17,955 nucleotides of DNA, taken from a virus (lineage: Duplodnaviria > Heunggongvirae > Uroviricota > Caudoviricetes). This document shows positions 771 to 16,063 of this stretch, in pieces; the stretch's first letter is position 1; each line of letters starts with the position of its first letter. The stretch lies in the IMG/VR virus record IMGVR_UViG_2529292723_000018; one strand, written 5' to 3'. The translations under genes were made by a program, and so were the position numbers. The notes below the pieces were generated by a model, which saw nothing but the letters and a program-made list of their open reading frames with translations, was not told where the DNA came from and did not search any database.

Positions 771-904
771 ACCCGCTCCAGAATGTTTTAAACATGCATC
801 TTGCGAACAACTTTCAGAAGAGGTCAAAAAATGCGCTATATGTTGAGCATAAAACAAGCAAAATTAACATGCTAAAAATAAAAATACTTAAAATTCAATA
901 CAAT

Positions 905-1020: not shown

Positions 1021-1027
1021 CTTGTTG

Positions 1028-2647: not shown

Positions 2648-2696
2648 CCTACTGATAAATAAGATTAAAAATCACAATACAGATACGTTTGAGCTT

Positions 2697-2720
2697 CATT
2701 GCAATACGCATTGCAATACA
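2697..2720. repeat. tandem CATTGCAATAC(G/A) repeats near left end of E2 (candidate integrase arm-type or regulatory sites)
   Basis: Two tandem 12-mers; a near-identical tandem pair at 12781..12806 just upstream of the int start codon. Confidence 0.45.
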
Positions 2721-3069
2721 CGGTTGCTGGGTGATTTCAAAAGATGAATGCTGCGAAGGATGGAAATTTGGGAACTAGGTGGTGAATAGCACAACAAAAA
2801 ATCAGAATTCTACTAGCTTAAAATGATGCAAAAAGCATTCGTGGCATCGCAAGCGCTGTACAATTCGTTCTATAATGAAGAAAATTTCTAACAGACTTTA
2901 TCATTCAAAGGTGGAGGAGATGACAGCAATGCAACATGCATCACGCTCATACTTGAATTGTAAAGCTATCGTTAGAATCACAGCCTTTTTGTTCCGCTGA
3001 TCTAACGATAAAACTAGTGGTAAAAGGTATATTTTTTAATTTTTCAGACGCTGGCGCGGGGTAATTAAA

Positions 3070-3372
3070 ATGAAATTTGTAAATATACGGTCATCCGAGT
3101 TGCCTGAAATAGATACCTTTGTAAAAGAATGTATCAACCAAGGACAATGGACTCTTTTCAAGGCCGAGAAGGGTGCAGTTAATGATAATAAAGTTGCTTT
3201 TTTTCTAAAGGCTGGCAAAGATTTCTTTGCATTAAATAACAGAGGAAGTGTTATCTCTGTATTTCAATCATTAGATTATAATCTTGAAATGAATGAGGTA
3301 ATTCATTTTTCAGATATTCCTAAACCTGAATCGTTGAGCAATATTGCTAGCTTAGGATTTGCTAGAGTTTAA
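3070..3372 (+). CDS. hypothetical protein (100 aa), first gene of AT-rich cargo operon
   Basis: ATG at 3070; 18-bp gap to next gene on same strand; visibly AT-rich codon usage unlike the core genes; no recognised motif. Confidence 0.55.
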   Translation: MKFVNIRSSELPEIDTFVKECINQGQWTLFKAEKGAVNDNKVAFFLKAGKDFFALNNRGSVISVFQSLDYNLEMNEVIHFSDIPKPESLSNIASLGFARV

Positions 3373-3390
3373 TATATAAGGATATGTACG

Positions 3391-4281
3391 ATGGGATTAA
3401 TATCTGGAAATACACATTGGGTATTATTTTTACCTTGTGAGCACCAACCAGAAGATCGCCATGTTCAAGATTTAGTTCATGGCGTCTTTTGCTTAGAATC
3501 CTCAGGTATACAGCCATCTAATATTAGCATATATATTGATGGCCAAAATAGAGCCAACTTTAATAAGTTAATTTCGATTGCAACCCAACATAATTATACT
3601 ATCAAGCCTACATCTGAATTTTTCACCGACTGCGATACAAATAGTTATGAAAATCTAGTTATGTTTGTGACCGGACACGGAAGTATGAATGGTTTGGACT
3701 CTGCGCCGATCATAACCCCATACCGTTTATTGGACAGGTTAAAAAACACTCCTGTTCTCAAGCAAGCAATCGTTTATCTTGGTCAATGTTTCGCTGGTGT
3801 TTTCAACTACTTACCTGCTGGGCAGCGTAAGAGAGGTGAAGATGCCGACCCCGATGTCATTCTTATCGGGGCTACGAGTCTTCATGAAAGTTTGAGTAAT
3901 CCAACAACGGAAAATATTAATGGTATAGATTTTCCTTGGGTTGCAAATCAATTTTTATATCATGTATTTAAGTGGATATCATCCCCGAATGATATCGATG
4001 GGGATGGAAAACATACAGTAATTGACTCTTATAAGTATGCTGGAATCTCATCAAACATGACCAATCGTAGAATGAAGATAGGTTCTTTTGTAGCTTCGGT
4101 AGACTTGCATGAGCAATGGAATACTGCAAAAAAAGATCATGAAGCTAACTTGGCTGATCCACAAAAACTACTCCGTTATAGAGCATTAGATCAGCAATAC
4201 TATGAAAAACTGAACATTAACTATATTCATCAAGAGTGCTGGATATTAAATTCTGTACCTGCACAATCTGTTGAATTCTAA
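3391..4281 (+). CDS. predicted caspase-like (clan CD-type) cysteine peptidase, candidate His96/Cys133 dyad; candidate anti-phage effector
   Basis: TAAGGA Shine-Dalgarno 7 nt upstream; hydrophobic strand + His-Gly (NLVMFVTGHGS) and hydrophobic strand + Gln-Cys (AIVYLGQCFAGVF) 37 residues apart, the arrangement seen in caspase/legumain-type peptidases; AT-rich. Confidence 0.5.
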   Translation: MGLISGNTHWVLFLPCEHQPEDRHVQDLVHGVFCLESSGIQPSNISIYIDGQNRANFNKLISIATQHNYTIKPTSEFFTDCDTNSYENLVMFVTGHGSMNGLDSAPIITPYRLLDRLKNTPVLKQAIVYLGQCFAGVFNYLPAGQRKRGEDADPDVILIGATSLHESLSNPTTENINGIDFPWVANQFLYHVFKWISSPNDIDGDGKHTVIDSYKYAGISSNMTNRRMKIGSFVASVDLHEQWNTAKKDHEANLADPQKLLRYRALDQQYYEKLNINYIHQECWILNSVPAQSVEF

Positions 4282-4285
4282 TCCT

Positions 4286-4453
4286 TTACTTTTTTGAATA
4301 GATTGCTGCAAGTGCCGTTTTGAGGTCGTAATTTCGGCACTTGCAACTGCAACCAGAAATAGGGCGAACGTTTGACAAACGTTTAGCTATAGTCTGCCGA
4401 TGAAATCCAGTCACTTCCGCCAACTCACTTAAATTTAGAACTATCTTTTTCAT
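4286..4453 (-). pseudogene. remnant of Nu1-like terminase small subunit (55 codons, HTH portion only)
   Basis: Hand translation MKKIVLNLSELAEVTGFHRQTIAKRLSNVRPISG... parallels NINQLAAIAGICRQTAAARLKNIQPAGG of the 285..770 protein, then diverges; ends 4 bp from the stop of the convergent cargo gene; not in ORF track (under 60 aa). Confidence 0.45.
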
Positions 4454-4547
4454 CATAATTACCCTTCAGATGTCGAACAAATAACATACAATCCATCATC
4501 TTTTCCACTTTTATAAAGTTTTACCTAATAAAATTCAGTTAGTTAGC

Positions 4548-4632
4548 GAATGATGATGATGTCTATAAAATTCAAAAACTAGCCGTTTCCCGCGATGCCG
4601 CCGCCCCGTGGCAGGCATCCCCGCCGGGAGTA
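4548..4632 (-). other. lambda-like cos site (cos2) of element E2
   Basis: Minus strand reads CCACGGGGCGGCGGCATCGCGGGAAACGGCTAGTTTTTGAATTTT...CATCATCATCATTCG; same position (capsid 3' end to terminase remnant) as cos1. Confidence 0.55.
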
Positions 4633-4634
4633 CC

Positions 4635-4662
4635 TTTTAAAAAAGGGCAGCATCTGCCGCCC
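4635..4662 (-). terminator. putative rho-independent terminator after capsid gene
   Basis: Short GC hairpin (GGCAG/CTGCC) followed by a T-run on the minus strand. Confidence 0.4.
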
Positions 4663-4670
4663 TCCTGTCG

Positions 4671-6587
4671 TCATGCCGCCCCGCTCGACTTCACCATGCC
4701 CCGATAATCCAGCGCCGCCACGCCAGCATCGATACGCACCTTCCATGCAATACCGTCCACAGTGAAGCCCTCCTGCTGTTCCAGATACGGCACGTCCATT
4801 CCATCCAGATATGCCACCTCGATAGTGTCGGTGCCTTGCGCTGCAGTGACGTACCACTCCTTGTTGTTGGCCTTGTCCAGTCGCGGCTCAACCACTACCT
4901 GCGCCATATCCTTCACGACGTTGATAATGCCTGGGTTCTGGTTCAGCATACCGTTCTGGTCTACCGGGAACAGCGAAGATGATGACAGCACAGCTCGATT
5001 GGCTGCGCCTTCCAGCGCGGCAGGTACAAGGATATAGGCTGGGATAACATTAATAGGATCGCCGTTCGCATCCTCCTGCAGACGCATAGCCTTACGGGCC
5101 TCATTGAGTCCGTCTGTATCCATCCCTTTAGCGATGAGGTTTTTATGGTCGGCGTGGAACAACGCTTTACCATCTGTGAATTTGCTGTTGGCGGTCAGTT
5201 GCAGGTAGACCAGATTGCCAACCGTTCGTGCGGCGGCACGCCCCATTGCCTGTGGAATGGTCGTGAGCTGGCTCAGGTCATCGTTGATAATGGCCTGGCG
5301 TGTAACAGAGAAGATGTTTCCATAGGTGGCCAGCGCGATCGGCACACCGCTGTCGCTGGTAGTGACATATTTGTATTCAGCACCTTCCGGGACTTTATCC
5401 AGTTCTGAAAAACCATTCAGACCGACACGTTTAGCCTCATGGAAATTCGACAGAGAACCGGTCTTTGTCCACTGCTGGAAAGTTTCCCCGCTGTTCTGCC
5501 AGCCAGTCAGCACCGACTTTTCAGCACCACCAGCCAGGATATGAGAGAAATCACTGGTGCTGTGCGTAAATGCCAGGTTCACGATCTGCGAGCGATTCCC
5601 GAAACCACTGACGCTGATACCACGATCCACCAGCGAAGCCTGCGCCATTTCAAACAGACTCATCATGGCGTAAGGGTTTCCCCTTTCGGCGCGTTCGTGA
5701 CCCAGACGGGCAAAAAGCCCCTGGCGGATAGCATCGCCGGTAATGTTGCCGTTACCTGCGTAAATGTGCGCGTTACTGGTTTTATCCGATGGGGTCGAGG
5801 TCTTACCCAGTGCCGTCAGCAGCATGTCTTTTGCTTTTTCAGGCGTGCAATCCACATCCTCCAGACACTGCATCTTGAGAGAATCATGCTTGCCGCCGAA
5901 CATGGCAAACAGATCCTTAATCTCGTTGATGCGGTTCTGTTCCGGTACAGCGCTACTGGTGGAACCTTTCGGGCTGGTGATCATCCCTTTAATTTCTTTT
6001 GGCATATGCTCAAAATCCTCAATTCGTTTTGACTCAATACAGGCCATTGCCCTGACGGCGGGTAACAATTCGTCAGCAAAACCCTGCGCTACACATTCGC
6101 GGCCATCCATCCATGTTTCATCCTCCAGCATTTCCGCCAGTGATTCGGCTGATTTACCCGTTTTGCGTGCATATGCCGGGATCAAGACACTTTCGACTTT
6201 ATCCAGAAGTTCGGCGTAGTCGCGCATGTCGTTGGCGTTCCCACCAGAGATTCCCCACGGTTTGTGAATCATCATGAGTGCGTTTTCGGGCATAACGATA
6301 CGGTCGCCAGCCATTGCAATAACTGACGCCATAGACGCGGCGAGACCGTCGATCTGCACTGTAATTTTTGCCGGGTGTTTATTCAGAAGGTTATAGATAG
6401 CGATGCCGTCAAAAACATCGCCACCGGGTGAATGAATGTGCAGGCTGATATGGGAGATATCGCCTAGGGCTTTCAGGTCTTCGGAGAACTGCTGCGCCGT
6501 AATACCCCAGCCGCCGATCTCTTCGTAGATGCTGATATTGGCGCTGGTGCCATCGCTGGCCGCTTTGATGGTGTACCAGCCTTTCAT
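4671..6587 (-). CDS. ClpP-like prohead protease fused to HK97-fold major capsid protein (638 aa), intact
   Basis: ATG at 6587 with AAGGGGA Shine-Dalgarno; N-terminal ClpP-like motifs (GLAASMAS, MMIHKPWG); long C-terminal capsid-like region; ATGA overlap with upstream small gene. Confidence 0.85.
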   Translation of the reverse strand: MKGWYTIKAASDGTSANISIYEEIGGWGITAQQFSEDLKALGDISHISLHIHSPGGDVFDGIAIYNLLNKHPAKITVQIDGLAASMASVIAMAGDRIVMPENALMMIHKPWGISGGNANDMRDYAELLDKVESVLIPAYARKTGKSAESLAEMLEDETWMDGRECVAQGFADELLPAVRAMACIESKRIEDFEHMPKEIKGMITSPKGSTSSAVPEQNRINEIKDLFAMFGGKHDSLKMQCLEDVDCTPEKAKDMLLTALGKTSTPSDKTSNAHIYAGNGNITGDAIRQGLFARLGHERAERGNPYAMMSLFEMAQASLVDRGISVSGFGNRSQIVNLAFTHSTSDFSHILAGGAEKSVLTGWQNSGETFQQWTKTGSLSNFHEAKRVGLNGFSELDKVPEGAEYKYVTTSDSGVPIALATYGNIFSVTRQAIINDDLSQLTTIPQAMGRAAARTVGNLVYLQLTANSKFTDGKALFHADHKNLIAKGMDTDGLNEARKAMRLQEDANGDPINVIPAYILVPAALEGAANRAVLSSSSLFPVDQNGMLNQNPGIINVVKDMAQVVVEPRLDKANNKEWYVTAAQGTDTIEVAYLDGMDVPYLEQQEGFTVDGIAWKVRIDAGVAALDYRGMVKSSGAA

Positions 6588-6796
6588 TTTTCCCCTTCCG
6601 TTACAGCGAAGCCATTTTCATCAAGCCATGCGTTGACTGCGTGCCGGACTACCTGTGCCACTCCGGGCAATGGCTGGACAGGAAGATTTTTCAGATGATC
6701 GTTGCGGTATTGCTTAAGGCGTACAACGGTTTGCGCGTCCAGATGTACGGAGCCGCCTTTAGTCTCGCCAGTGTTTAAATCGTTAATGTCACTCAT
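6584..6796 (-). CDS. small conserved protein (70 aa) upstream of and translationally coupled to protease-capsid gene
   Basis: ATG at 6796 with AGAGGA Shine-Dalgarno (ORF-track start at 6844 is TTG); homolog at 13258..13464 (MSDINDLNTGE... vs MSCINDLNTGD...). Confidence 0.55.
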   Translation of the reverse strand: MSDINDLNTGETKGGSVHLDAQTVVRLKQYRNDHLKNLPVQPLPGVAQVVRHAVNAWLDENGFAVTEGEK

Positions 6797-6941
6797 GATG
6801 TCCTCTACTGTATAAGTAAACAGGTTATGATGATTGATCACCAAAAGTGGTAAGTGAACAATTTTTTATCTGAAAAATAGATTTATGATGAAAAAAAATT
6901 TTTGTATGGTCTTAGATTGGAATAAACAGAAAGGTTAAAAA

Positions 6942-7655
6942 ATGGATCTCACTCGTAATGACGAACTCCTTTTGAATGATGCAGCTAGACGCTCATTTCG
7001 GGATATGGCAGACCAGGATTATCTCTCAGCTCGTCTGTGTTATAAGCACAAATTGAATTTTCAATTTTTATGGCTTTCGCAACAAGCCGTAGAGAAATAT
7101 ATTAAAGCGATTTTACTTTATAATAGAGTTCCAGTATTAAAATTAAATCACAATTTAAACAAAGGGCTGGCAAAGATTAAAGAAATCCCATATCTTGAAT
7201 TAGACCTAGATGTAAAAAGTGAGCGATTCATAGATTATCTCAATGAGCAGGGCCCAAATAGATACTTCCAAAACACTATGTATACCGAAGGCTTTGAAAT
7301 TATAACCTTGGATAGAACCATCTGGGAATTAAGAAGATACTGCAAGCCACTAAACTACTCAATTACTAACCCAAAAGGTGAAGTGATAGAAATGTTAGAA
7401 CATGAATTGAGTAGCATAAAAAATTCGAAGTCGAGGCCTTATCATACGTTCAAACTATTTGGAGGTTACTTAGAAAAAAGATTAAAAGATAATAAATTCA
7501 ATCAGGGCGACATACTTACATGGAAAAATTTATTTTTTGGAAGAAATAAAAAAAATGCAATTAGAATTGGAAGATCAATGCATGTAACTCATCCAACTCA
7601 TTATATGTACCCAAATGCAACGGAAATGCTCAGTCGTTTCTTTAAAATAAAATAA
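6942..7655 (+). CDS. HEPN-like protein (tentative), candidate abortive-infection effector; AT-rich cargo
   Basis: N-terminal helix pair with QQAVEKYIKAILL resembling the HEPN QAxEKxLKA signature; R-x5-H (RIGRSMH) near C-terminus; opposite strand to flanking core genes. Confidence 0.5.
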   Translation: MDLTRNDELLLNDAARRSFRDMADQDYLSARLCYKHKLNFQFLWLSQQAVEKYIKAILLYNRVPVLKLNHNLNKGLAKIKEIPYLELDLDVKSERFIDYLNEQGPNRYFQNTMYTEGFEIITLDRTIWELRRYCKPLNYSITNPKGEVIEMLEHELSSIKNSKSRPYHTFKLFGGYLEKRLKDNKFNQGDILTWKNLFFGRNKKNAIRIGRSMHVTHPTHYMYPNATEMLSRFFKIK

Positions 7656-7744
7656 TTACATTCCAATTTTATTTACCGCTGTTAAATAAGTAAGGTATAT
7701 CTTTATTTATCGACATTGATAATCATGAAAGAGTATATCTTTTT

Positions 7745-7960
7745 TGCCGCACCTAGCGCATTTCTCACCGCACTTTCATCCCGCGCACTTAGGTGCGCAA
7801 TCCAACATGCACCGTACAGCCATTAAAACCAGTAATGGGGCGGGTTTGCAGGTGATTAATGCCAAACCGCGCACTTTCTTCGTATATACATGGAAAAAGT
7901 GCGGCAAGTGTATGTTTTATGAGCATTTCGCGCATCACGCGCATTTCTTGCCGCACTTTT
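7745..7960. repeat. iteron-like repeat cluster (TTGCCGCAC / CGCACTTT / GCGCATTTC, direct and inverted); candidate origin for the E2 replication protein
   Basis: TTGCCGCAC at 7745 and 7949, its complement at 7900; CGCACTTT four times; GCGCATTTC at least twice; lies immediately 3' of the replication gene, as the TGTTCACC iterons do in E1. Confidence 0.45.
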
Positions 7961-7964
7961 CAGG

Positions 7965-9374
7965 TTAAATTATCGTGATATCTCCTGAATCATCGATAAA
8001 GATAATATTCTCCCTAACGAGTTTATCAAGCCAGCGTTTAAAACCTTTGCGGCCGTTCTCTCCAAACAGAGTGGTAATATCATCACGTATAACAGAGACA
8101 TTACACGGTTCACCTTTGGCTTTTCGGCTCCGGATTGACTGCCAGAGTGCAGCGTGGTTCCCAGTCAGGTGCTTGATATCAGCAAGTTCCGGATCAGGTT
8201 CTCGTGCCTCTCGTGGCAGGTCCTGCACCACCAGCGACGAAATAAGCTCACCATCACGATCTGTGAACAATTCGATCGGACGCAGATCGAATGCGGCCTG
8301 TTTCGGCTCCTCCGCATCTTTCATCTTCGTACAGGTCAGGATTATCGCCCCACCATCCCCCTCGCGCCGGACATTGAACTCTGCATCGAGCGCAGCCCTG
8401 AAAGCACTGGAACCACGTGCGCCTTTGGTATCGTCTTTTCCTGAATGATGCACCACCAGCAACGTGGCGCCAGTCTCACGCTTGATGACGTCGCAGCCTT
8501 CAATAAACGCCCCCATGTCACGAGCATCGTTTTCATCGTTACCACCAAAGCACCGCGCTAGAGTATCTATGACAATCAGGCGAACCGGCTGCCCCGTTTT
8601 GGACTTAACGTCACGCGCAGCTTTGATCATCTCCTGCATTTCCTCACGGCGAACCGGGAAAACCGGACGGTTTACCAGATACAGATTATTTAGTTTCACA
8701 CCATGTTTTTTCTCCCACGCCTTTATTCGCCGCGGAACGCCAATACCACCTTCACCTACTACGTACATCACAGCGCCGGCTGATACCGACTTCCCCGCCC
8801 ACTTCATCCCGGCTGCAACGTGACAAGCCCAGGACACCGCCAGAAAACTTTTATACGAACCGCTCGGGCCGTAGATACTGCTCAGGCTGTTAGCGGGAAG
8901 ATAACTTTTTAACGTGTAATCCTGCTCCTGATCGTACCCATCAGAGCCCACGCTTAAAGGAAGGCTGTGCCGCAGTGACTCCTCTCGCACAGAGACTTCA
9001 ACCTGTTCACGCAGACGAGAAAGATATTCCCTCCAGTCCTCAGGCTCATGGTCGGGGATTCCTTTATACAATTTGGCATCCTGCACGCCAGCCAGCGCCA
9101 GCTTTTCAGCAATGTTATTAATCTGGATAGGCTTTATATTCCCTGCCAGGTAAATCCGCACGGCACGACGGCCATCATCCACAATGCGCAGGTTATCCAG
9201 CTCTGCCAGTTGTTTTGGCCCAAGGTAAACAGGAGGAGTGGTATCTTCGGCAATCTGTTTACCAAGCCCCTCTTCCCAACCCTTCGCATGGGCGTATGCT
9301 TCTGACCCGGCAAAAATAACTGCCTCCGTGAATTTTTCTTTTGGCAGGTGTTTCAGATTCGGTGCGTTTTTCAT
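7965..9374 (-). CDS. replication protein: N-terminal domain shared with the P4-family primase at 14246..16063 plus AAA_25/RecA-like ATPase (pri-rep type)
   Basis: ATG at 9374 with AAGGGG Shine-Dalgarno; deviant Walker A (YGPSGSYKSF); LLVVHHSGKD...RGSSA motif typical of RepA-like ATPases; first ~110 aa align with the E1 primase (KxAPNLKH...). Confidence 0.75.
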   Translation of the reverse strand: MKNAPNLKHLPKEKFTEAVIFAGSEAYAHAKGWEEGLGKQIAEDTTPPVYLGPKQLAELDNLRIVDDGRRAVRIYLAGNIKPIQINNIAEKLALAGVQDAKLYKGIPDHEPEDWREYLSRLREQVEVSVREESLRHSLPLSVGSDGYDQEQDYTLKSYLPANSLSSIYGPSGSYKSFLAVSWACHVAAGMKWAGKSVSAGAVMYVVGEGGIGVPRRIKAWEKKHGVKLNNLYLVNRPVFPVRREEMQEMIKAARDVKSKTGQPVRLIVIDTLARCFGGNDENDARDMGAFIEGCDVIKRETGATLLVVHHSGKDDTKGARGSSAFRAALDAEFNVRREGDGGAIILTCTKMKDAEEPKQAAFDLRPIELFTDRDGELISSLVVQDLPREAREPDPELADIKHLTGNHAALWQSIRSRKAKGEPCNVSVIRDDITTLFGENGRKGFKRWLDKLVRENIIFIDDSGDITII

Positions 9375-9694
9375 TTCAGCCCCTTATCCCATCCGTCAGA
9401 TCCAACACTCAGCGGCAGAGAAGAGCGCAGAGCAGCGATTTTTTTACGCACGTTTTCTTTTCCGGTCTCCTGCCACTCCCTGCTTTCCTCAGGGAGATAA
9501 ATAAATTCTTTTCGGAACCGGTACTCAGAAAAAATACACTCATGTGAATACCCATCCCGGACATACGTAATACGGCTATCCGTTATGCATGTGACAGTAA
9601 TTTTTTCTCCGCGAGAATCTTTCCAGCGACTGTTAAGCTCGATTTTTGGTTGAGCGATGCCCTCAAGCTGAACCTGATTGAATTTTTTAATCAT
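9371..9694 (-). CDS. small protein (107 aa), homolog of 16060..16359; C-terminal tail resembles the primase linker
   Basis: ATGA overlap with primase start; YVRDGYSHECIF vs YFIRDGYSFHSS in the E1 homolog; C-terminal LRSSLPLSVGSDGWD matches primase LRHSLPLSVGSDGYD. Confidence 0.55.
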   Translation of the reverse strand: MIKKFNQVQLEGIAQPKIELNSRWKDSRGEKITVTCITDSRITYVRDGYSHECIFSEYRFRKEFIYLPEESREWQETGKENVRKKIAALRSSLPLSVGSDGWDKGLK

Positions 9695-9698
9695 GAAT

Positions 9699-9878
9699 TT
9701 ATTCCTTGTCGGTAGCCGTTAAACCGTATGCTTCAGCAGCCTGACGAACTGCCTGGATAAAACCTTCCGGTGTGGCCACGATTTCGTCCGGACGAAGGCG
9801 GCGCTCTGTAACCTGACCGTTTTTAACCGTCACCAGTACGCGGATCTCGTAATCAGCAGGTAAGGCGGAGTTATCCAT
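9699..9878 (-). CDS. small hypothetical protein (59 aa from internal ATG)
   Basis: ORF-track frame 9699..10004; upstream part overlaps the better-supported gene 9871..10158, so start placed at ATG 9878. Confidence 0.3.
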
Positions 9879-10158
9879 GGCGCCCCTCCATTGGCACAGC
9901 TTCATTGCTGTAAGGATCGCTACCCAAGATGCTCCATAGGGTGCGATGTTCAGGATCCATAAACGACACTGAGAGCGGGCTTTCTGTTCGGATTTTGGCG
10001 GCAAAGGTCAAGTCCCAGCCGCAGAACTTTGCACGGGCAGTATCTTCAGTGTCTGCAATGGTGCGCAGAACTATCGGGAGACAAGAGTGACCTCGCGGCG
10101 TGCCAAGGAATAGCCATGTAAATTTTGGGCGAGTTTGGGTATGCTGTTGATCAGCCAT
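9871..10158 (-). CDS. small protein (95 aa), first gene of leftward operon; homolog of 16679..16883
   Basis: ATG at 10158 with GAGGT Shine-Dalgarno; shared KFTW motif and downstream pattern with the E1 homolog. Confidence 0.5.
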
Positions 10159-10190
10159 AACTGTTACCTCAACTAACGGTTTGTGGTTAG

Positions 10191-10239
10191 ACGTCCCGTG
10201 AGTGGTTCCAAGCACTTCCGGGACGTTGCTTTTTTCACG
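10191..10239. promoter_or_regulatory. conserved stem-loop (ACGTCCCG / CGGGACGT, 20-nt loop) followed by T-run, at the 5' end of the leftward operon
   Basis: Same structure at 16919..16965 in E1 with a compensatory pair (T-A replaced by C-G). Confidence 0.45.
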
Positions 10240-10248
10240 TCAAGCGTG

Positions 10249-10298
10249 ATAACGTACGTACGTAATAGCAACATCCTATGAGGTTACGTACGTACATG
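10249..10298. promoter_or_regulatory. two palindromic operator-like sites (ACGTACGTACGT core) between divergent RHH gene and leftward operon
   Basis: TAACGTACGTACGTAATA and TTACGTACGTACATG about 34 bp apart; second overlaps the start region of the RHH gene. Confidence 0.5.
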
Positions 10299-10487
10299 TC
10301 AACAATAAAACGAGATAAAACACCCAAAGGAGAGGGCTTGTCTCCGACATTCCAAATCCGAATAAGTCCTGAATTGCGCCAGCAGATGAATGAAGCTGCT
10401 GAGCGTGAGGGAGTAAGTCTTGGTAATTGGCTTAAAGGTCTGGCTAGAAATGAACTTATTAAGCAAGGAATTGAACCTAAAGGTTAG
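10278..10487 (+). CDS. ribbon-helix-helix (Arc/CopG-like) transcriptional regulator, candidate E2 repressor
   Basis: RISPELRQQMNEAAEREGVSLGNWLKGLARNEL fits a beta-strand plus two helices; true start may be ATG 10296 (MSTIKRDK); adjacent to palindromic operators. Confidence 0.6.
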   Translation: MRLRTYMSTIKRDKTPKGEGLSPTFQIRISPELRQQMNEAAEREGVSLGNWLKGLARNELIKQGIEPKG

Positions 10488-10540
10488 TTTTCACAAGCAC
10501 TCTTTGATTTTTTCAGTAAAAATTAAATTAAGGAAATTCT

Positions 10541-11251
10541 ATGGATGATTTATATACACCATCTGAATATTTTATGTTCGTAGAGAAATTTGATCATTAC
10601 TTCCCACGAAAAAGCCCTTTTAACTCATTATTATTCGAGTTCAATTATAGATTAGAAGATATAGTTGTTTTTCATCGCTTTGTTATCAACACCTATTCAA
10701 AAAATAAAAAAGCAATTGATGTACAATATAATAAATTTAATTTTCTTGATGATAAACAAAAAAATTCCCTTTCTGATGACGAGTATGAAGCGTATCAACT
10801 CAGGTTTGCAAGGCATATGGAATACATTAACCATCAAACTGATTTGAATGAAAAAGCGTCTTACATTGCTAACGATAGTGTCGTTATAAACTTATGGGCC
10901 ATGAATGAACAATATATGACTAGAGGATTGGCCAACCTAATATCTCAAAAAGAAAATAAAAATTTAAATGAAGTTAAAACGCCTTACAAATGGGATACAA
11001 TCAAAAGTAAATTCCTGTCATATGGAATCAACTTTGAGACATTGCCATCTTATGATGACATTAATGAATGTAGAGTACTGAATAATAAAATAAAACATCT
11101 GAACATAGTAGATTCTGGTTTAGAAGTTTTCCCTCCCTTCAAAGGTAAGCTTAACGAATCACTTACTGGCATGGCCTTTCCTCTTCAAAAATATATCATA
11201 GGCTCTCATCACTTTATAGGAATGCTATTAGAAGAGTGCTCATTAAAATAA
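10541..11251 (+). CDS. hypothetical protein (236 aa), AT-rich cargo in the RHH-alpA slot
   Basis: AAGGA Shine-Dalgarno; AT-rich, Asn/Lys/Ile-rich; the same slot in E1 holds only a 62-aa ORF; no recognised motif. Confidence 0.55.
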   Translation: MDDLYTPSEYFMFVEKFDHYFPRKSPFNSLLFEFNYRLEDIVVFHRFVINTYSKNKKAIDVQYNKFNFLDDKQKNSLSDDEYEAYQLRFARHMEYINHQTDLNEKASYIANDSVVINLWAMNEQYMTRGLANLISQKENKNLNEVKTPYKWDTIKSKFLSYGINFETLPSYDDINECRVLNNKIKHLNIVDSGLEVFPPFKGKLNESLTGMAFPLQKYIIGSHHFIGMLLEECSLK

Positions 11252-11255
11252 ACGC

Positions 11256-11292
11256 ATGGCAACGTATAATTTATCGCTTAATACGTTGCCAT
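11256..11292. terminator. 12-bp perfect inverted repeat (ATGGCAACGTAT / ATACGTTGCCAT, 13-nt loop) between convergent genes
   Basis: Lies between the stop of 10541..11251 (+) and the stop of alpA (-); no strong T-run, so terminator function is uncertain. Confidence 0.4.
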
Positions 11293-11297
11293 ATCTC

Positions 11298-11543
11298 TCA
11301 TTTATTTTTATCGAACCAATCTCCTTTAATCCAAGCTTGCATCTCTGAGAGCCGGTAAGCAACTGCTGACGGCCCAATTTTGATTCGCTTAGGAAATTTT
11401 CCTTCCTGTTCCATGCGCCAGCGCGTTGAGTTAGACAACGTAGTCATAGCCCGGCATTCAGGTTCGCGAATCATTCTGTCAAGGTCAGGCATGTACTGGA
11501 GATCTTCTTTTTTCACAACGGATAACATAGCCATATCAGGCAC
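11298..11543 (-). CDS. alpA: AlpA-family excisionase / transcriptional regulator
   Basis: MIREPECRAMTTLSNSTRWRMEQEGKFPKRIKIGPSAVAYRLSEMQAWI matches the AlpA pattern as recalled; start may be the internal ATG at 11492; 8-bp overlap with int. Confidence 0.8.
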   Translation of the reverse strand: MPDMAMLSVVKKEDLQYMPDLDRMIREPECRAMTTLSNSTRWRMEQEGKFPKRIKIGPSAVAYRLSEMQAWIKGDWFDKNK

Positions 11544-12771
11544 TCCTTTTCTTAATTACTTTTACTGTATTTTCTTCACCCACCAGCCCATCAAGGTAGT
11601 CAACCCATCGGTCCAGTGCTTCTTGCTTTTGAGGGATATACTTGCTGCGGTTATAGACTCCGGCCACGCCCTTTATGGTATGCCCCAGCAGCTGCTCTAC
11701 GACCATAAAATCAACGCCCATATCGTTAAGGCTTGTCGAGAACGTTCGTCTCAAATCATGTAATGACCAGCGTTTTTCATGTTTCAGAGAGATAAAGTTT
11801 GTGCATCCCATCGTACTGACGGTTGAATCAGATTTCAGTTCGCCAAATATGTAGCCTCTCCTTTTAGTCTCTTCGTGCAGGTTTACGATCCACTGGCGCA
11901 TTTTTTGAGGAACGGGGCGAATAATTTCTTCGCCGTTTTTACTGTGCTCTTTAGGTACTGTCCAAATCCACTTATCGAAATCCCACTCATCCCATGTAGA
12001 TAAACGCGCCTCACTCAGCCTGCAGCCAAACACGAGACACAAAATCGCCATCCTTTTTTTGTAATTCATTACACGGGTTTTGCCTTTACCATGAAAGTAC
12101 ACTCCCCACAGATCGGCGACGTAGCTTTCCTCAAGTAGCCGCTCTCTCTTGTTCTGATACTTACCGATATCACCAGGGCTCAAATCATCAAGCACATTGC
12201 ACCGCACATACTGGCGCACCCGGCAGTATTTGAAGATCTGCTTTAACTCAATCAGCATTGCAGCAGACTGAACCGGCGCGATTTTCTTTATGCGGTCGAA
12301 GCACTTGATCCAGTCTGACAGACCGCATTTCTCGACAGGAAACCCGCCGATGTAGGGAAAAATGTATCTCTCATAACGGCGATAGAGCCGTAAAGTCTCT
12401 TTGCGCTTTTCCCTGGCATAGTTATCAAACCAGTAATCGATAGCGTTCTTCACAGTTACTGGAGTGAACAGGTTCTCTTTGGTGAGTTTGTTCTCTATTC
12501 GTGGGTCGAGTCCCTGAGATAGCCATGCCCGGCACTCGTCCCTTTTCTCTCTGGCCTGTTTAAGGGTCATATCTGGATACTTGCCTAACGTCATCCAGAC
12601 GGGGGCGCTTTGTCGGCCGGAATGTCTGAAGAAATACACAAAGCTCACAGTGCCACTAACGCTCACTCTGACAGACAGTCCACGACCATCTGCCACCATC
12701 TTTTGACGCGGCTGGGGTTTACCATGTAAGGCCTTTAACGCCTTGTCGCTTAACTTGTTCTCGCCCGCCAT
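11536..12771 (-). CDS. int: P4-type tyrosine integrase
   Basis: N-terminal arm-binding pattern (GRGLSVRVSVSGTVSFVYFF...LGKYPDMTLKQAREKR); C-terminal catalytic-region motifs LHDLRRTF and LLGHT...VYNRSKY; adjacent to right junction of E2. Confidence 0.9.
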   Translation of the reverse strand: MAGENKLSDKALKALHGKPQPRQKMVADGRGLSVRVSVSGTVSFVYFFRHSGRQSAPVWMTLGKYPDMTLKQAREKRDECRAWLSQGLDPRIENKLTKENLFTPVTVKNAIDYWFDNYAREKRKETLRLYRRYERYIFPYIGGFPVEKCGLSDWIKCFDRIKKIAPVQSAAMLIELKQIFKYCRVRQYVRCNVLDDLSPGDIGKYQNKRERLLEESYVADLWGVYFHGKGKTRVMNYKKRMAILCLVFGCRLSEARLSTWDEWDFDKWIWTVPKEHSKNGEEIIRPVPQKMRQWIVNLHEETKRRGYIFGELKSDSTVSTMGCTNFISLKHEKRWSLHDLRRTFSTSLNDMGVDFMVVEQLLGHTIKGVAGVYNRSKYIPQKQEALDRWVDYLDGLVGEENTVKVIKKRSA

Positions 12772-13258
12772 AAAACCTCATTCTGCAATACACATTGCAA
12801 TACACACTTAACTGCAACGCCGAAAAACAGTAGAAAAGCAATGCAAACAACACCTCTTCTTTCTTCATAATTAACAATAAGTTAATGAATGAATACGGTT
12901 CTTCATGCGTACCCATGAGGTAGTGTGAAGGATAATGGATCATCATCATGGCGTTCTCCGGCATCACTACACGATCGCCAGCCATTGCGACCACCGAAGC
13001 CATTGAAGCCGCAACACCATCGATATAAACCGTAATGTCTGCCGGATGATTCCGTAGCAGGTTATAGATGGCGATGCCTTCAAACACATCACCACCTGGT
13101 GAATGGATCCTCAGATTGATATGTGAAACATCGCCAAGGGCTTTCAGGTCTTCCGCGAACTGCTTTGCAGTAACACCGAAGCCGCCAATCTCCTCATAGA
13201 TAGATATATCCGCCGCTCCACGAACATCCGCCGCCTTAATGGTGTACCAGCGATTCAT
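12719..13258 (-). CDS. N-terminal fragment of ClpP-like prohead protease (first 108 codons authentic; remainder is read-through into E2 DNA); disrupted gene
   Basis: MNRWYTIKAA...GVAASMASVVAMAGDRVVMPENAMMMIH is about 75% identical by eye to the N-terminus of the intact fusion, then diverges at the 12-bp repeat. Confidence 0.7.
   Translation of the reverse strand: MNRWYTIKAADVRGAADISIYEEIGGFGVTAKQFAEDLKALGDVSHINLRIHSPGGDVFEGIAIYNLLRNHPADITVYIDGVAASMASVVAMAGDRVVMPENAMMMIHYPSHYLMGTHEEPYSFINLLLIMKKEEVLFALLFYCFSALQLSVYCNVYCRMRFYGGREQVKRQGVKGLTW
12781..12806. repeat. tandem TGCAATACA repeats 10 bp upstream of int start
   Basis: CTGCAATACACATTGCAATACACAC; matches the tandem pair at 2697..2720. Confidence 0.45.
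12935..12946. repeat. right copy of 12-bp direct repeat ATGGATCATCAT (candidate att core, right junction of E2)
   Basis: Identical to 2618..2629; protease homology begins exactly here on the minus strand. Confidence 0.6.
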
Positions 13259-13776: not shown

Positions 13777-13848
13777 ATGAAAATGCAAAAACCAGCCTTT
13801 TTCCGCGACGCTCCCGCCCCGTGGCAGGTCACTACACCGGGAGGACCC
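13777..13848 (-). other. cos-like segment (cos3), about 72 bp near-identical to cos1 but lacking the CATCATCAT cosB-like flank
   Basis: Two mismatches to cos1 across the cosN-like core; flanking sequence differs immediately beyond GCATTTTCAT. Confidence 0.5.
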
Positions 13849-13850
13849 AT

Positions 13851-13878
13851 AAAAAAGCCGGATTGCTCCGGCTTCTGT
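13851..13878 (-). terminator. rho-independent terminator
   Basis: GCCGGA-ttgc-TCCGGC hairpin with a 6-A run on its + strand 5' side. Confidence 0.5.
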
Positions 13879-14002: not shown

Positions 14003-14231
14003 CCTTCACCTGTTCACCTTTTGATATTTTCTCTTTTAATTCATAATGTTAAGGGGTGAACAGTTTCACAAAAACTATTCACCAACTGTTCACCACTGTT
14101 CACCCTTGAAGCTCAATAAACAATCAAAAAGGTGAACAGTGAATAGTTTGGTGAACAGTTCATAAATAACTGTTCACCCTATAATATACTGATATAAAAG
14201 ATATTTATGACAGGGTGAACAGTGGTGAACA
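14003..14231. repeat. P4-type iteron cluster: at least 10 copies of TGTTCACC / GGTGAACA in both orientations (candidate ori/crr)
   Basis: Exact octamers at 14011, 14055, 14087, 14097, 14131, 14150, 14171, 14214, 14224 plus variants; TGTTCACC is the octamer bound by P4 alpha protein at ori and crr. Confidence 0.75.
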
Positions 14232-14245: not shown

Positions 14246-16063
14246 TTAATTTTTGCTATCGTCATTAGTGACCGATACACATGATGGCATCCAGTCTTCT
14301 GATTCCTCCGTCAGTGTCACGTTTGAACGCAAACCGTGCTTCGTTTTCCGTTTCATATACTCCCTGCCATATTCCGCCATTGCCCCCGGCATATCTTTAC
14401 CGAAGCGCGTCAGTGTTACAGGTTTACCAAACCCATGTGCCCTCATATAAGCCAGATAGGCATGATAGAGATACCTGCGTGGGCTGAATGGCACAATTTC
14501 AGCATTACCCACTAACAGGCCATCACACATTACCGACGCCATGAGATAGCCGCAGAAGTCCACCAGCGAATCCCCCTCTCGCTTTATCGCCAGTGCTTCT
14601 TCAGATTTCTGCTGCTCATATAACAGGCGTCTGGCTTCGTCCTGGTCAGCAAACCGTGTAAGCAGATGGCGAATCACTACCGCCAGCTCACCTTCTATTT
14701 TTTCCGCCAGCATTGGATCACGTTCGTTCTCCGGTACAACTTCCGAAAAATTGAATATCACCCGACGACGTGAGATCCCCCCGCTGCGGTCACTGAATGA
14801 CATGGCGTTATTGTTAACCGCCAGCACTACTGCCGGAATACGCGTTGAGTAGGGGGCTTTGTGTTTCGGGTCAATTGCCACCTTGTCACCGCCTGTAATA
14901 GCCTTAATCCCTGCCCCATCACCAGCGTAGCGGGTCATATCCGGCATGATAATCAGCGAAAAGCCAACCACTAACGCGCGTTCCCTTGCATCTTCCAGCG
15001 CCTTCATGCTTGCCGATACTGTGTTGGCCTTACCCGCCAGCATGGTGCAAATCTCCGCCATCACGCTTTTACCACTTCCCCCTGGACCTGTTACCTCAAT
15101 GAATAACTGCCAGTCGTACCGGTTCGCCAGCACCATGAATAATGCAGCCAGTACGCGATCCGCCTTGCGGTCATTCTCAGCCACCGAACGGCGTAACCAC
15201 TTCCAGAAATTCGGCGCATGTGTTGCCAGCGTTTCCCCCTCTGCTGGTGGGCTGAAAGGTAATTCACTGGCAATTAACAACCAGTCGTTTTTGTTATGCT
15301 CCCGAAAATTACCTGTTCTGGTATCAAATACCCCGTTACTGAATCCAATCAGGTTACGGGCTGTATTCCCCATTACAGGCAAACTTAACTTCATGGTATC
15401 GACCGCCGATTTAATGGCGTTCTGCGAATAGCTGATCTCCGCATCAATGAAAATCTGTGCCATAGCTCGCTGTAATTCTTTATCCTGTACTGGCTCCCAT
15501 ACAACGCCGTTGTAATGGTGAACAGTGTCAGAGTCAGCATGAATCGCCAGTTCACCGCCATAATGTGCCAGGAGAACTTCGCCGCGTTGACTTGCTCCCA
15601 TCTGGTTAAGCGCCAGTGATGAAGCGTTATCGTCTTTTACCCGCTCTTTTTTCTTTACAGGCAGTTCAACTACCTTTTTCTTTTCCGCCTGCTCTGCCCG
15701 TTCACGTTCCAGATATTCGCGCCAGTTCTCCCGTTTCTGGCTGTGCATTCCTTCAGGATAATAATCAGCATCCCTGACACCTGCCGCTGCCAGTTTCTGC
15801 CCGATGGTATTAACAAGTCCCGGACGCAATAACCCCGCCTGATAGAGACGCACGCGATAGCGTCCGTCTGGTACGATTTGCAGGTTGTCCAGTTCGGCAA
15901 GTTGTTGCTCTCCAAGCCAGACAGGTGGCACGTTATCGCCAGCCAGTCGCCCGTCCTGTTCCTGCCACTGCTTCGCATGTGCCCACGCATCACTACCCGC
16001 AAAAATGATGACTTCCGTCATTTTGTCACGCGGTTGGTGTTTTAAATTTGGCGCTTTTTTCAT
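14246..16063 (-). CDS. P4-family primase / SF3 (D5-like) helicase
   Basis: Start placed at ATG 16063 (MKKAPNLKH, GGAGAG Shine-Dalgarno; the ORF-track start at 16078 is GTG); Walker A GPGGSGKS; cognate TGTTCACC iterons immediately downstream. Confidence 0.8.
   Translation of the reverse strand: MKKAPNLKHQPRDKMTEVIIFAGSDAWAHAKQWQEQDGRLAGDNVPPVWLGEQQLAELDNLQIVPDGRYRVRLYQAGLLRPGLVNTIGQKLAAAGVRDADYYPEGMHSQKRENWREYLERERAEQAEKKKVVELPVKKKERVKDDNASSLALNQMGASQRGEVLLAHYGGELAIHADSDTVHHYNGVVWEPVQDKELQRAMAQIFIDAEISYSQNAIKSAVDTMKLSLPVMGNTARNLIGFSNGVFDTRTGNFREHNKNDWLLIASELPFSPPAEGETLATHAPNFWKWLRRSVAENDRKADRVLAALFMVLANRYDWQLFIEVTGPGGSGKSVMAEICTMLAGKANTVSASMKALEDARERALVVGFSLIIMPDMTRYAGDGAGIKAITGGDKVAIDPKHKAPYSTRIPAVVLAVNNNAMSFSDRSGGISRRRVIFNFSEVVPENERDPMLAEKIEGELAVVIRHLLTRFADQDEARRLLYEQQKSEEALAIKREGDSLVDFCGYLMASVMCDGLLVGNAEIVPFSPRRYLYHAYLAYMRAHGFGKPVTLTRFGKDMPGAMAEYGREYMKRKTKHGLRSNVTLTEESEDWMPSCVSVTNDDSKN

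Follow-up and report, generated by a model that had tools for sequence, protein, structure and literature searches.

Four 'allelic variants' of the E. coli PICI Pri-Rep protein have been described, that of EcCI042 among them (Fillol-Salom et al., 2018, PMC6092414). [quoted passage not shown] The Reps of SaPIs (Staphylococcus aureus pathogenicity islands) are helicases that load themselves and use a C-terminal winged helix to recognise the iterons placed shortly after rep; the opposed iterons of the SaPI ori flank an AT-rich centre (PMC9371898). PICIs can themselves be occupied: 24 E. coli PICIs carry an HE-PICI at site C:CLP_protease:110, the other hosts being lambdoid prophages (Mageeney et al., 2023, PMC10111431).

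The window, meaning the whole 17,955-nt stretch of DNA analysed here, belongs to an E. coli chromosome and holds two phage satellites, both E. coli PICIs of the EcCICFT073 family, the inner one (E2) nested in the outer one (E1) (Table 1). The cluster of repeats at 7747-7958 is very probably the vegetative replication origin of E2, with the 469-aa protein encoded beside it as its cognate self-loading helicase-initiator. Such an arrangement has already been described for PICIs of the EcCICFT073 family (2018) and is not new in kind.

Table 1. Features of the two nested elements (positions are those of the window).
Feature	Position	Strand	Description
E1 rep	14246..16063	-	605 aa from ATG at 16063; N-terminal domain, P4-alpha-type SF3 helicase, P4-type origin-binding domain
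E1 origin	14011..14231		nine exact TGTTCACC iterons, both orientations, directly 3′ of E1 rep
E2 int	11536..12771	-
AlpA-like	11298..11543	-	phrog_2790
DUF4222 gene	9371..9694	-	coupled translationally to rep
E2 rep	7965..9374	-	469 aa, probable helicase-initiator; ORF list and translation, Pfam, phrog_2850, RefSeq
E2 Rep N-terminal domain	8997..9374	-	aa 1-126; common to E1 and EcCICFT073 Pri-Rep
E2 Rep ATPase core	8430..8939	-	aa 146-315; RepA/DnaB-like RecA fold; Walker A SGSYKS, Walker B LIVIDT
E2 Rep C-terminal domain	7968..8177	-	aa ~400-469; predicted winged-helix-like; putative iteron-recognition module
Rep-proximal iteron set	7897..7958		7951-7958, 7939-7946, 7930-7935 in one orientation; 7897-7904 inverted
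AT-rich centre	7877..7896		TTCTTCGTATATACATGGAA, containing GTATATAC, between opposed iterons; putative melting site
Rep-distal iteron set	7747..7876		7869-7876; 7791-7798 and 7783-7790 head-to-head ('palindrome'); 7768-7775, 7756-7763, 7747-7754
CATTACTGG motif	7829-7836	-	conserved; in spacer of distal set
AT-rich tract	7656..7746		past last iteron; 70-80% A+T
E2 protease-capsid	4671..6587	-

The replication protein of E2

E2 rep and the DUF4222 gene upstream of it share 4 nt (ATGA), where the start codon of the former runs into the stop codon of the latter. A preliminary description had credited the product with a RepA-like ATPase, and a profile search bears this out: Pfam AAA_25 (PF13481) matches aa 146-315 with E=1.7e-41 (142.5 bits against a cutoff of 27), phrog_2850 spans the full length, and RefSeq names the protein 'helicase RepA family protein'. 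There are more than 2000 homologous proteins, among which SGSYKS and IDTLARCFGG(N/S)DEND are invariant or nearly so. The same description had reserved the Walker A motif for the E1 protein, mistakenly, as both proteins are P-loop NTPases and E2 Rep has the invariant SGSYKS. The real contrast is between a RecA-fold, RepA/DnaB-like helicase in E2 and an SF3, D5/P4-alpha-like helicase in E1.

The PDB match of E2 Rep is 1G8Y, RSF1010 RepA (E=3e-4), and its best Foldseek matches are Twinkle and RadA. A fold search against a viral library returned nothing at E<=0.001. RSF1010 RepA is a helicase with neither initiator function nor an origin-binding domain; a separate protein, RepC, binds the iterons. 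E2 Rep has its ATPase family in common with RSF1010 RepA and with the T7 gp4/Twinkle-type primase-helicases, but differs from these in its added C-terminal domain and in having no recognisable catalytic primase.

That C-terminal domain is predicted to form three helices and a beta hairpin (H405-420, H426-437, H439-454, E458-460, E465-468) in an AlphaFold model that was built from a shallow alignment of 13 sequences, with pLDDT of 74-89 over the C-terminal blocks and 64.5 overall. Neither solved structures nor the P4 origin-binding domain match it significantly by sequence or profile. Pfam finds no Rep_3-type domain in E2 Rep; unlike the iteron plasmids with Rep_3/RepA-WH initiators (pPS10, F, R6K), in which a dimeric WH1-WH2 protein recruits host DnaB through DnaA/DnaC, E2 has a probable initiator that is itself a helicase.

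The Pri-Rep of EcCI042 is homologous to E2 Rep over its full length: N-terminal domain, AAA_25 helicase and C-terminal domain all align, with 59% identity over 466 aa. As in E2, DUF4222 precedes it and an iteron origin of the same layout follows directly 3′, with an inverted pair around CCTGTATACA. The two differ in the C-terminal recognition segment (MKNF in EcCI042, GRKGF in E2, with a 2-residue length difference), in the iterons (AAAGTGAGG (CCTCACTTT) against (C/G)CGCA(C/T)(C/T)T), and in location, EcCI042 being in chromosomal tqsA and E2 in a late gene of another PICI. EcCICFT073 has the gene order of E2 (int, alpA, YlcI, icd, ..., DUF4222, rep, ori), an N-terminal domain 50% identical to that of E2, and an origin with inverted and direct iterons directly 3′ of rep. 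However, its helicase is of the D5_N/DUF5906/Pox_D5 (SF3) kind, like that of E1 and unlike that of E2, and its iterons are TGTCTACC/GGTAGACA.

The repeat cluster

The repeats and the palindrome that the preliminary description had quoted directly 3′ of E2 rep are all found there: TTGCCGCAC at 7744-7752, GCGCATTTC at 7756-7764, CGCACTTT at 7769-7776, and the palindrome GCGCACTTAGGTGCGC at 7783-7798. All represent a single degenerate iteron, (C/G)CGCA(C/T)(C/T)T, which occurs ten times, on both strands, within 7747-7958 (212 nt) directly 3′ of the rep stop; the first copy begins 7 nt past the stop codon. The copies fall into sets of 4 and 6, and the 20-nt centre that opposed iterons enclose is 70% A+T.

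Seven of the 11 exact CGCAYTT matches in the window sit in the ~216 nt of the E2 cluster; since shuffled sequence gives 7.3 per whole window, only ~0.09 are expected in the repeat stretch. SCGCAYYT has 17 matches against 5.95 expected, and none of 200 shuffles reached 17. In an unbiased 7-mer test the top word was AAGTGCG with 5 occurrences, a number reached by 7 of 2000 dinucleotide shuffles.

Past the last iteron, the AT-rich tract contains two 13-mers GTATATCTTTWTT (7695-7707 and 7733-7745) and a single weak DnaA-box-like site, TTATCGACA (7707-7715). It is possibly an auxiliary unwinding element, or just flanks the 3′ end of the convergent HEPN gene; related loci do not conserve it, their iterons being followed at once by the next gene. 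This main AT-rich tract lies outside the iterons, and within the distal set the long spacer reaches only ~50% A+T. The spacer between iteron sets is not AT-rich in the iteron class to which E2 belongs, and the putative melting centre is only 20 nt. The E2 iterons are also more degenerate than those of relatives, with mixed GCGCA/CCGCA cores and C/T at the following positions.

An Rfam scan of the whole window gave no family, and no terminator-like site was found in the E2 origin region. A single promoter-like site was predicted, within the coding sequence of rep, and shuffles yield as many. Two ORFs run over the repeats (7744-7968 plus, 7789-7956 minus); these were taken as non-coding because RefSeq annotates no gene in this stretch and only the iteron cores are conserved there.

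The CATTACTGG motif occurs in the EcCICFT073 origin too. We considered it as a target of the N-terminal domain shared by E1 and E2 and rejected this: the motif is absent from L090 and L091 and imperfect in L002, all of which have the domain, and it is present in loci with another N-terminal type.

Conservation of the cluster across related loci

We fetched 80 related loci, of which ~70 were usable, from many genera of Enterobacterales. Conservation of the repeats next to homologous replication genes had been proposed as a check, and it is found: nearly all of the usable loci have an iteron cluster <=350 nt 3′ of the rep stop codon. One layout recurs over the iteron classes, with 2-3 direct iterons, an inverted pair around GTATA(C/T)A, a spacer, and 3-5 direct iterons. 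In an alignment of 8 loci of the same iteron type, also proposed beforehand, invariant columns concentrate in the iteron cores. The rep-proximal iteron positions are kept across these 8 origins, as is every E2 iteron position relative to other genera. The T.TATA core of the centre is invariant in the 8 aligned GCCGCAC-type origins, and GTATAC/GTATATA stands between the inverted iteron pair in the other iteron classes examined.

Repeats in this place could instead serve the late region downstream, as operators, as sites of transcription control or as packaging-recognition sites. The next gene does begin a few bases past the last iteron in several relatives, and P4 crr-type repeats also lie between operons. 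We consider this function very unlikely, as the cluster stays at the rep stop codon whatever genes follow: a convergent HEPN gene in E2, a small-ORF-plus-SSB pair in L090, L091 and EcCI042, and tail genes in L093. The cos-like sites of both elements lie elsewhere, away from the E2 repeats (924-1003, 4567-4643, 13777-13856), and the homologous position in EcCICFT073 is needed for replication (PMC6092414).

Among the related loci, each class of the C-terminal ~70 aa of the protein goes with its own iteron sequence; there are four classes and no mismatched pairing. C-terminal RK[SG]F pairs with GCCGCA (8/8, plus E2 in the window), KHF with (T/C)CCCCAC (7/7), KKF with CCCCCAC (30 of 31), and KN[FL] with CCTCAC (18 of 21), the leftover loci having no clear iterons at all. 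Three loci fetched afterwards as a test (L090, L091, L093) have iterons that fit their C-terminal class. N-terminal types are spread over the C-terminal/iteron classes, so that iteron type is independent of the N-terminal domain. The covariation is partly phylogenetic. One instance is a pair of loci, L003 and L009, whose DNA is 80-93% identical from -359 to codon ~400 and then ~50%; along with the C-terminal tail, the iterons change from TGCCGCA to TTCCCCAC. Only the left breakpoint of this pair is informative, because the divergent block runs past the origin into downstream genes. Since tail and iterons switch together, the upstream gene does not set specificity.

These comparisons bear on who reads the repeats. 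Rep might be only the replicative helicase of this origin, like RSF1010 RepA beside RepC, with the iterons read by the DUF4222 product, the shared N-terminal domain or a host factor. The closest solved relative is indeed a helicase devoid of initiator function, DUF4222 always precedes rep, and no known DNA-binding domain matches the Rep C-terminal domain at the level of sequence. This division of labour is nonetheless unlikely: DUF4222 and the N-terminal domain are homologous across the unrelated iterons TGTTCACC, TGTCTACC, GCCGCAC and CCTCACTTT; N-terminal types are scattered over the iteron classes; and L003 and L009 are 70-90% identical upstream while their iterons differ, only the C-terminal ~65 codons changing alongside. 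The last ~70 residues of E2-type Rep are likely the specificity module, to judge from this covariation. That the cluster is the cognate origin of E2 Rep appears almost certain on sequence grounds, because the iterons are conserved in place and layout and track the C-terminal tail, not the N-terminus.

The outer element and phage P4

The E1 protein scores for Pfam D5_N, DUF5906 and Pox_D5. Its aa 150-600, which take in the helicase and the origin-binding domain, are 50.7% identical to P4 alpha, the alignment beginning at E1 residue 150, and its C-terminus matches PDB 1KA8 (E=5.6e-46). TGTTCACC is the octamer annotated 'ori type 1 repeat' in the ori and crr of the annotated phage P4 genome; a literature full-text search for it returned unrelated primer sequences only. 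The E1 cassette is like that of P4 alpha with its ori/crr, and its identical iterons follow the gene directly on the 3′ side, an arrangement also seen in P4 crr. P4 alpha differs in having its own N-terminal zinc-ribbon/Toprim primase (~300 aa), in place of which E1 has a 126-aa PICI N-terminal domain, and it is unrelated to the helicase and C-terminal domain of E2.

As the preliminary description had it, different repeats replace TGTTCACC at E2: all nine copies follow E1 rep and none occurs in the E2 repeat region. Its proposal that each gene keeps a cognate origin downstream is likewise supported. A BLAST likeness between the C-termini of E2 and E1 (27%, E=0.006) was rejected, since hhalign gave it a probability of 0.35%. 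By these sequence comparisons, no homology is detectable between the C-terminal domain of E2 Rep and the origin-binding domain of P4.

The shared N-terminal domain

E2 Rep and the E1 protein align over residues 1-126 of the former and 6-132 of the latter (58% identity, E=3e-41); outside this stretch they show no significant similarity. The earlier view that they share only the N-terminal part holds, but the length is ~126 aa, not ~110. The domain is predicted to have an alpha/beta Rossmann/Toprim-like fold. Of the Toprim hallmarks, it lacks the Glu after strand 1, the DxD after strand 3 and the zinc ribbon. We found no recognisable primase domain in either replication protein. The name 'primase', which the preliminary description used for the E1 protein, is an annotation inherited from the P4 family that is unsupported for E1 and E2, and the 'DNA primase' names on these proteins derive from the helicase part of P4 alpha.

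Four unrelated helicase classes are fused behind the N-terminal domain: RepA/AAA_25, P4-alpha/D5, DUF927 and VapE. These partners come from an exhaustive search of representatives, as a word-indexed search gave mostly gene fragments. DUF4222 is the constant partner of the domain in E1, E2, EcCICFT073 and EcCI042, with any helicase class. In relatives of E2 Rep from Serratia, Pectobacterium, Xenorhabdus, Photorhabdus and others, a genuine Zn-ribbon and Toprim primase precedes the same helicase, C-terminal domain and iterons.

The preliminary description had the two satellites exchanging replication cassettes. Modular exchange is supported: the E1 N-terminal domain matches that of a RepA-type protein at 76%, against 58% for that of E2; the helicase classes vary behind it; and in strain LR-31 a recombinant island joins an integration and regulation zone of E1 type to the E2 replication zone, which comes after it. 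However, this is mosaicism throughout the family and not a reciprocal swap between E1 and E2.

Tentatively, we suggest that the 126-aa N-terminal domain of enterobacterial PICI Pri-Rep might be not a primase but a catalytically dead Toprim-like adaptor that, with DUF4222, couples any following helicase-origin cassette to a host or helper priming/replisome factor; we would rate this as possible, short of probable. If true, PICI replicons would be plug-and-play, and PICI-in-PICI nesting would be a natural route for cassette exchange, for which compare the LR-31 recombinant.

Nesting and spread of E2

E2 is organised as a Gram-negative PICI, with int, an AlpA-type regulator, the replication module (icd, DUF4222 and rep) and then late genes that include its own protease-capsid gene (4671-6587), all on the minus strand; this gene order matches that of EcCICFT073 and EcCI042. 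E2 interrupts the ClpP-protease portion of the E1 protease-capsid gene at a 12-bp core, ATGGATCATCAT, copies of which stand at 2631-2642 and ~12924-12935. The intact target gene of strain HS13-1 equals left flank, core and right flank, and the protease profile is interrupted near position 108-118. This is the published helper-embedded PICI site C:CLP_protease:110. An identical integrase occurs at the same MMIH codons of the protease gene in a lambda-like prophage of another genus. Nothing essential in the nesting of E2 differs from the HE-PICIs described in PMC10111431, which does not discuss the RepA-type replicon and its iterons.

Many contigs of E. coli, Enterobacter and Citrobacter encode proteins identical or >97% identical to E2 Rep, a sign that it has recently spread by horizontal transfer. 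In some strains E2 copies are decaying through IS3 insertion and deletions. Three partial matches (H7-H9) end near domain boundaries and were considered as natural domain swaps, but proved to be decay products, explained by an IS3 insertion and deletion in NCTC9699 and by a deletion reaching nfeF in strain 300490.

Such truncated or IS-disrupted copies raise the question whether the module in the window is a relic too, its repeats left from a once-functional origin in a decaying island and now inactive. The greater degeneracy of the E2 iterons would fit, as would the lack of a terS gene, none being recognised in E2 by RefSeq annotation or phrog profiles. Inactivity is nevertheless most improbable, given the intact 469-aa ORF, the near-identical proteins in several genera with the recent spread that they indicate, the identical integrase at a second target, and the retention of all iteron positions relative to other genera.

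A model for E2 replication

With the cluster taken as the E2 origin, induction would lead to expression of the icd-DUF4222-rep operon. The winged-helix-like C-terminal domain of Rep (aa ~400-469) would bind the ten iterons, and Rep would assemble through its RecA-fold ATPase domain on both sides of the 20-nt AT-rich GTATATAC centre. On melting of this centre, the Rep helicase would load itself with no separate loader. Priming and elongation would fall to host or helper enzymes, priming because E2 Rep has no recognisable primase. Our analysis shows the domain architecture, the repeat statistics, the conserved position and layout of the cluster, the covariation of C-terminal domain and iterons, and the mosaic relationships; from these we infer that the C-terminal domain binds DNA, where melting takes place, that Rep loads itself and that priming depends on the host.

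This working logic is that of the SaPI Rep/PriRep, a hexameric, self-loading helicase that doubles as initiator. SaPI Rep has no sequence relation to E2 Rep, however, being of the AAA+ clade and 3′-5′ whereas E2 Rep is RecA-fold and RepA/DnaB-like, and SaPIs encode a real primase, separate or fused, in contrast to the lack of a recognisable one in E2 Rep.

Helicase, C-terminal domain and iterons would make up one exchangeable cassette behind a constant module of DUF4222 and the N-terminal domain. E1 carries a P4-alpha-type cassette with TGTTCACC, and the two nested elements would therefore have orthogonal replicons.

Implications

These results tidy annotation more than they open a new field. 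They supply a consensus for the iterons and a map of the origin in a PICI replicon type that is widespread, with >2000 homologous proteins. The C-terminal module, likely to set specificity, would make specificity swaps, compatibility and origin prediction in satellites straightforward. The window offers a concrete case of co-resident nested satellites with apparently orthogonal replicons, plus a recombinant that has inherited the inner replicon.

Two nested islands

The window is identical to part of the chromosome of E. coli O114:H49 90-9280, where it is bounded by the tRNA-Ile gene adjoining mug on one side and by nfeF on the other. It holds two nested islands, the outer E1, whose integrase lies just outside the window, and the inner E2; the main genes of both are on the minus strand. 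Both follow the gene order of EcCICFT073 and EcCI042, published E. coli phage-inducible chromosomal islands (PICIs): integrase, AlpA-type regulator, divergent YlcI/HicB-like gene, icd-like gene, small ORFs, DUF4222, replication protein, intergenic repeat region and capsid-type late gene. The two satellites that a preliminary description had seen in the window are therefore borne out, as PICIs.

E2 has integrated site-specifically into the ClpP-protease/major-capsid fusion gene of E1 and is flanked by 12-bp direct repeats. The uninterrupted target gene of strain HS13-1 equals left flank, core and right flank; the protease gene of E2 itself has GTGAATCATCAT at the corresponding spot (2 mismatches). 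An integrase identical to the 411-aa one of E2 is found with an E2-like element in another locus (L087:3480-4020, GCA_040015335.1), at core ATGATGATCCAT as in E1. The target there belongs to a lambda-like prophage and encodes its ClpP-like head protease; the genes for terminase GpA, a small protein and the portal immediately precede it. One integrase thus targets both prophage and PICI.

The ~80-nt elements GGGTCCTCCCGG...CCACGGGGCGGGAGCG(G/T)CGCGGAAAAAGGCT of both islands closely resemble the two published EcCICFT073 cos sites (GGGTCCTTCCGG...ACGGGGCGGCGACCTCGCGG) and are probably lambdoid-type cos sites. E1 has one copy after the capsid gene and another between origin and protease operon, while the single copy of E2 follows its capsid gene. 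The divergent promoter region separating the E2 icd-rep operon from the HicB/YlcI-like gene contains the ACGT-repeat palindromes TAACGTACGTACGTAA and TTACGTACGTACAT, likely an operator pair for the island's regulator; ACGTACG has 6 copies vs. 0.9 expected.

Several plus-strand genes of E2 resemble accessory cargo, and an Enterobacter copy of E2 has a putAbiC gene where the 236-aa gene stands in the window, which suggests anti-phage defence hotspots. Two decayed E2 copies keep the origin, HEPN and capsid genes at 99.7-99.8% identity: in NCTC9699 (L097) most of rep was removed by an IS3-family insertion and deletion, and in strain 300490 (L098) a deletion spans mid-rep to nfeF.

Features of the two islands (window coordinates unless a locus is named)
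Feature	Position	Strand	Remarks
E2, inner element	~2643-12935		10.3 kb
E2 junctions, ATGGATCATCAT	2631-2642 and ~12924-12935		12-bp direct repeat; encodes protease codons MMIH
E1 cos-like elements	924-1003 and 13777-13856		95% identical
E2 cos-like element	4567-4643		78% identity
E2 cargo-like pair	3070-4281	plus	100 aa and 296 aa, downstream of capsid gene
E2 HEPN-domain gene	6942-7655	plus	cargo-like; convergent on origin
E2 cargo-like gene	10541-11251	plus	236 aa, without family match
ACGT-repeat palindromes	10250-10264 and 10284-10296		
E2 rep	7965-9374	minus	469 aa
E2 iterons	7747-7958		ten copies
AT-rich centre	7877-7896		20 nt, between opposed iterons 7869-7876 and 7897-7904
CATTACTGG(G/T)TT motif	7829-7836	minus	origin spacer of E2
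E1 rep	14246-16063	minus	
E1 iterons, TGTTCACC	14011-14231		nine copies
LR-31 recombination junction	L083:11322-11324		window 9923 / ~16661

The two replication proteins

E2 Rep and E1 Rep have residues 1-126 in common (58% identity) and no other significant similarity, so that the shared part is N-terminal as first described, at ~126 rather than ~110 aa. The RepA-like ATPase ascribed to E2 Rep is confirmed (Pfam AAA_25, E = 1.7e-41; RSF1010 RepA, PDB 1G8Y, E = 3e-4). Behind the N-terminal domain, E2 Rep consists of this RepA/DnaB-like ATPase, a P-loop domain of RecA fold (Walker A SGSYKS; top Foldseek matches Twinkle and RadA/Rad51), and a C-terminal part of ~70 aa, predicted as three helices and a beta hairpin, winged-helix-like (pLDDT 74-89).

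In E1 Rep (Pfam D5_N, DUF5906 and Pox_D5) the shared domain is followed by the helicase and the origin-binding domain known from phage P4 alpha, with 50.7% identity to P4 alpha over aa 150-600 and a C-terminal match to the solved P4 origin-binding domain (1KA8, E = 5.6e-46). In both ori and crr of P4, the octamer that makes up the E1 repeats is annotated as 'ori type 1 repeat'. For the start of E1 Rep we favour the ATG at 16063 (605 aa), by RefSeq and the DUF4222 overlap, over the GTG of the ORF lister (610 aa).

The label 'primase' is not supported for either protein: no primase domain is recognisable in E1 Rep or E2 Rep, both lack the zinc-ribbon/Toprim region of P4 alpha, and the shared N-terminal domain has neither the Toprim Glu nor the DxD motif. 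'DNA primase' names trace to the P4-family helicase profile (TIGR01613 'primase_Cterm').

Repeats downstream of rep

All strings quoted in the preliminary description are present 3' of E2 rep and represent a single degenerate iteron, (C/G)CGCA(C/T)(C/T)T. Of 11 exact CGCAYTT matches in the whole window, seven lie in the 216-nt stretch that holds the cluster (~0.09 expected there), and SCGCAYYT has 17 matches vs. 5.95 expected, a count reached by 0/200 shuffles. An unbiased k-mer count put the top 7-mer at 5 copies, a number reached in 7/2000 dinucleotide shuffles.

The repeats are conserved beside homologous rep genes, a result in favour of the reading in the preliminary description, which had named this as a check. 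A one-genome-per-species scan for relatives of the helicase and C-terminal part yielded 80 loci, and in the ~70 usable ones a short-repeat cluster occurs no farther than 350 nt beyond the stop. The repeat classes are mutually related (TGCCGCAC(TT), TTCCCCAC, (T/G)CCCCCAC(TT) and TTCCTCACTTT) and share one layout: 2-3 direct iterons after the stop, an inverted pair around GTATA(C/T)A, a spacer, and 3-5 direct iterons. Among eight aligned origins of the window's class (Citrobacter, Kluyvera, Kosakonia, Phytobacter, Leclercia, Rosenbergiella and metagenome), the invariant columns are concentrated in the iteron cores, and spacers drift. The cluster adjoins rep regardless of the downstream gene, which is the convergent HEPN gene in the window, a small ORF and SSB in EcCI042 and two fetched loci (L090, L091), and tail genes in another (L093). 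Relatives do not share the AT-rich tract at 7656-7746, in which a DnaA-box-like site and two 13-mers, GTATATCTTTWTT, occur; this tract may be no more than the HEPN gene's flank.

The CATTACTGG(G/T)TT motif recurs at L095:7195-7210 and ~100-130 nt past the rep stop in L003, L004 and L006-L010, and is common to origin spacers of PICIs whose helicases are unrelated to each other (RepA-type and the D5-type of EcCICFT073). It was not found in relatives encoding a real Zn-ribbon/Toprim primase, and across loci its presence showed no correlation with N-terminal domain type. The motif contains CTG, the trinucleotide for which E. coli DnaG has a preference.

Iteron class and the Rep C-terminal domain

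Among the usable loci, iteron class tracks the sequence class of the Rep C-terminal domain: RK[SG]F goes with GCCGCA (8/8 loci, plus the window), KHF with (T/C)CCCCAC (7/7), KKF with CCCCCAC (30/31) and KN[FL] with CCTCAC (18/21). The non-agreeing loci have no clear iterons, and none pairs a C-terminal class with the iterons of another. In three further loci, retrieved later to test this pattern, the iterons were those predicted from the C-terminal class. N-terminal types (the window's domain, two other short domains, a genuine Zn-ribbon and Toprim primase, or none) are distributed across iteron classes.

The most informative pair is that of loci L003 and L009. Starting 359 nt before rep, their DNA is 80-93% identical up to codon ~400 and ~50% beyond, where TGCCGCA iterons give way to TTCCCCAC, although the divergent block extends beyond the origin. 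The upstream gene and helicase therefore do not set specificity, and these comparisons make the C-terminal tail its likely determinant.

Exchange of replication cassettes

In an exhaustive profile search the N-terminal domain occurred in only 130 clusters, invariably N-terminal, followed in full-length members by AAA_25, D5_N/DUF5906/Pox_D5, DUF927 or VapE-like helicase domains. That of E1 is 76% identical to the domain of a RepA-type protein and only 58% to that of E2. Within the window, E1 and E2 can be aligned at ~70-73% to either side of a ~2.4-kb non-homologous block, which starts early in rep and ends shortly before the small ORF that precedes the protease-capsid gene.

The island of E. 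coli LR-31 (L083) is a recombinant. It is 99.9% identical to and collinear with window 1-9923 (the right end of E1, and E2 through its small ORF), and beyond the switch point carries an E1-type icd, regulator and integrase zone. It has kept E2's small ORF, DUF4222, RepA, origin, HEPN and capsid genes, whereas an E1-type rep/ori and the E2 integrase are deleted. This is a natural case of replicon replacement between nested PICIs.

From the domain fusions, these identities, the ~2.4-kb block and LR-31, cassette exchange is real in the PICI family. As proposed for the two satellites here it needs amendment: it is mosaicism across many elements, not a reciprocal swap between the E1 and E2 copies.

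Relation to known replicons

In Gram-negative PICIs the origin, with two iteron sets, adjoins the 3' end of the initiator gene; EcCICFT073 pri-rep-ori was shown experimentally to drive plasmid replication, and four Pri-Rep allelic variants are listed for E. coli PICIs, EcCI042 included (Fillol-Salom et al., 2018; PMC6092414). The EcCI042 protein is of the RepA family, 59% identical to E2 Rep across its whole length, and AAAGTGAGG iterons follow its rep in the layout of E2. The replicon type has therefore already been published, as Pri-Rep; the papers searched make no mention of the AAA_25 helicase family or of a C-terminal specificity module.

By analogy with the EcCICFT073 and SaPI Reps, the iterons would be bound by the Rep C-terminal domain. 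Rep might then oligomerise on either side of the AT-rich centre, which would melt and let the helicase self-load, with priming from host or helper.

The repeats downstream of the E2 replication gene are confirmed, and their interpretation as its own origin is supported. This rep-origin arrangement is ordinary for the E. coli PICI family, to which the window contributes one more iteron-specificity variant.
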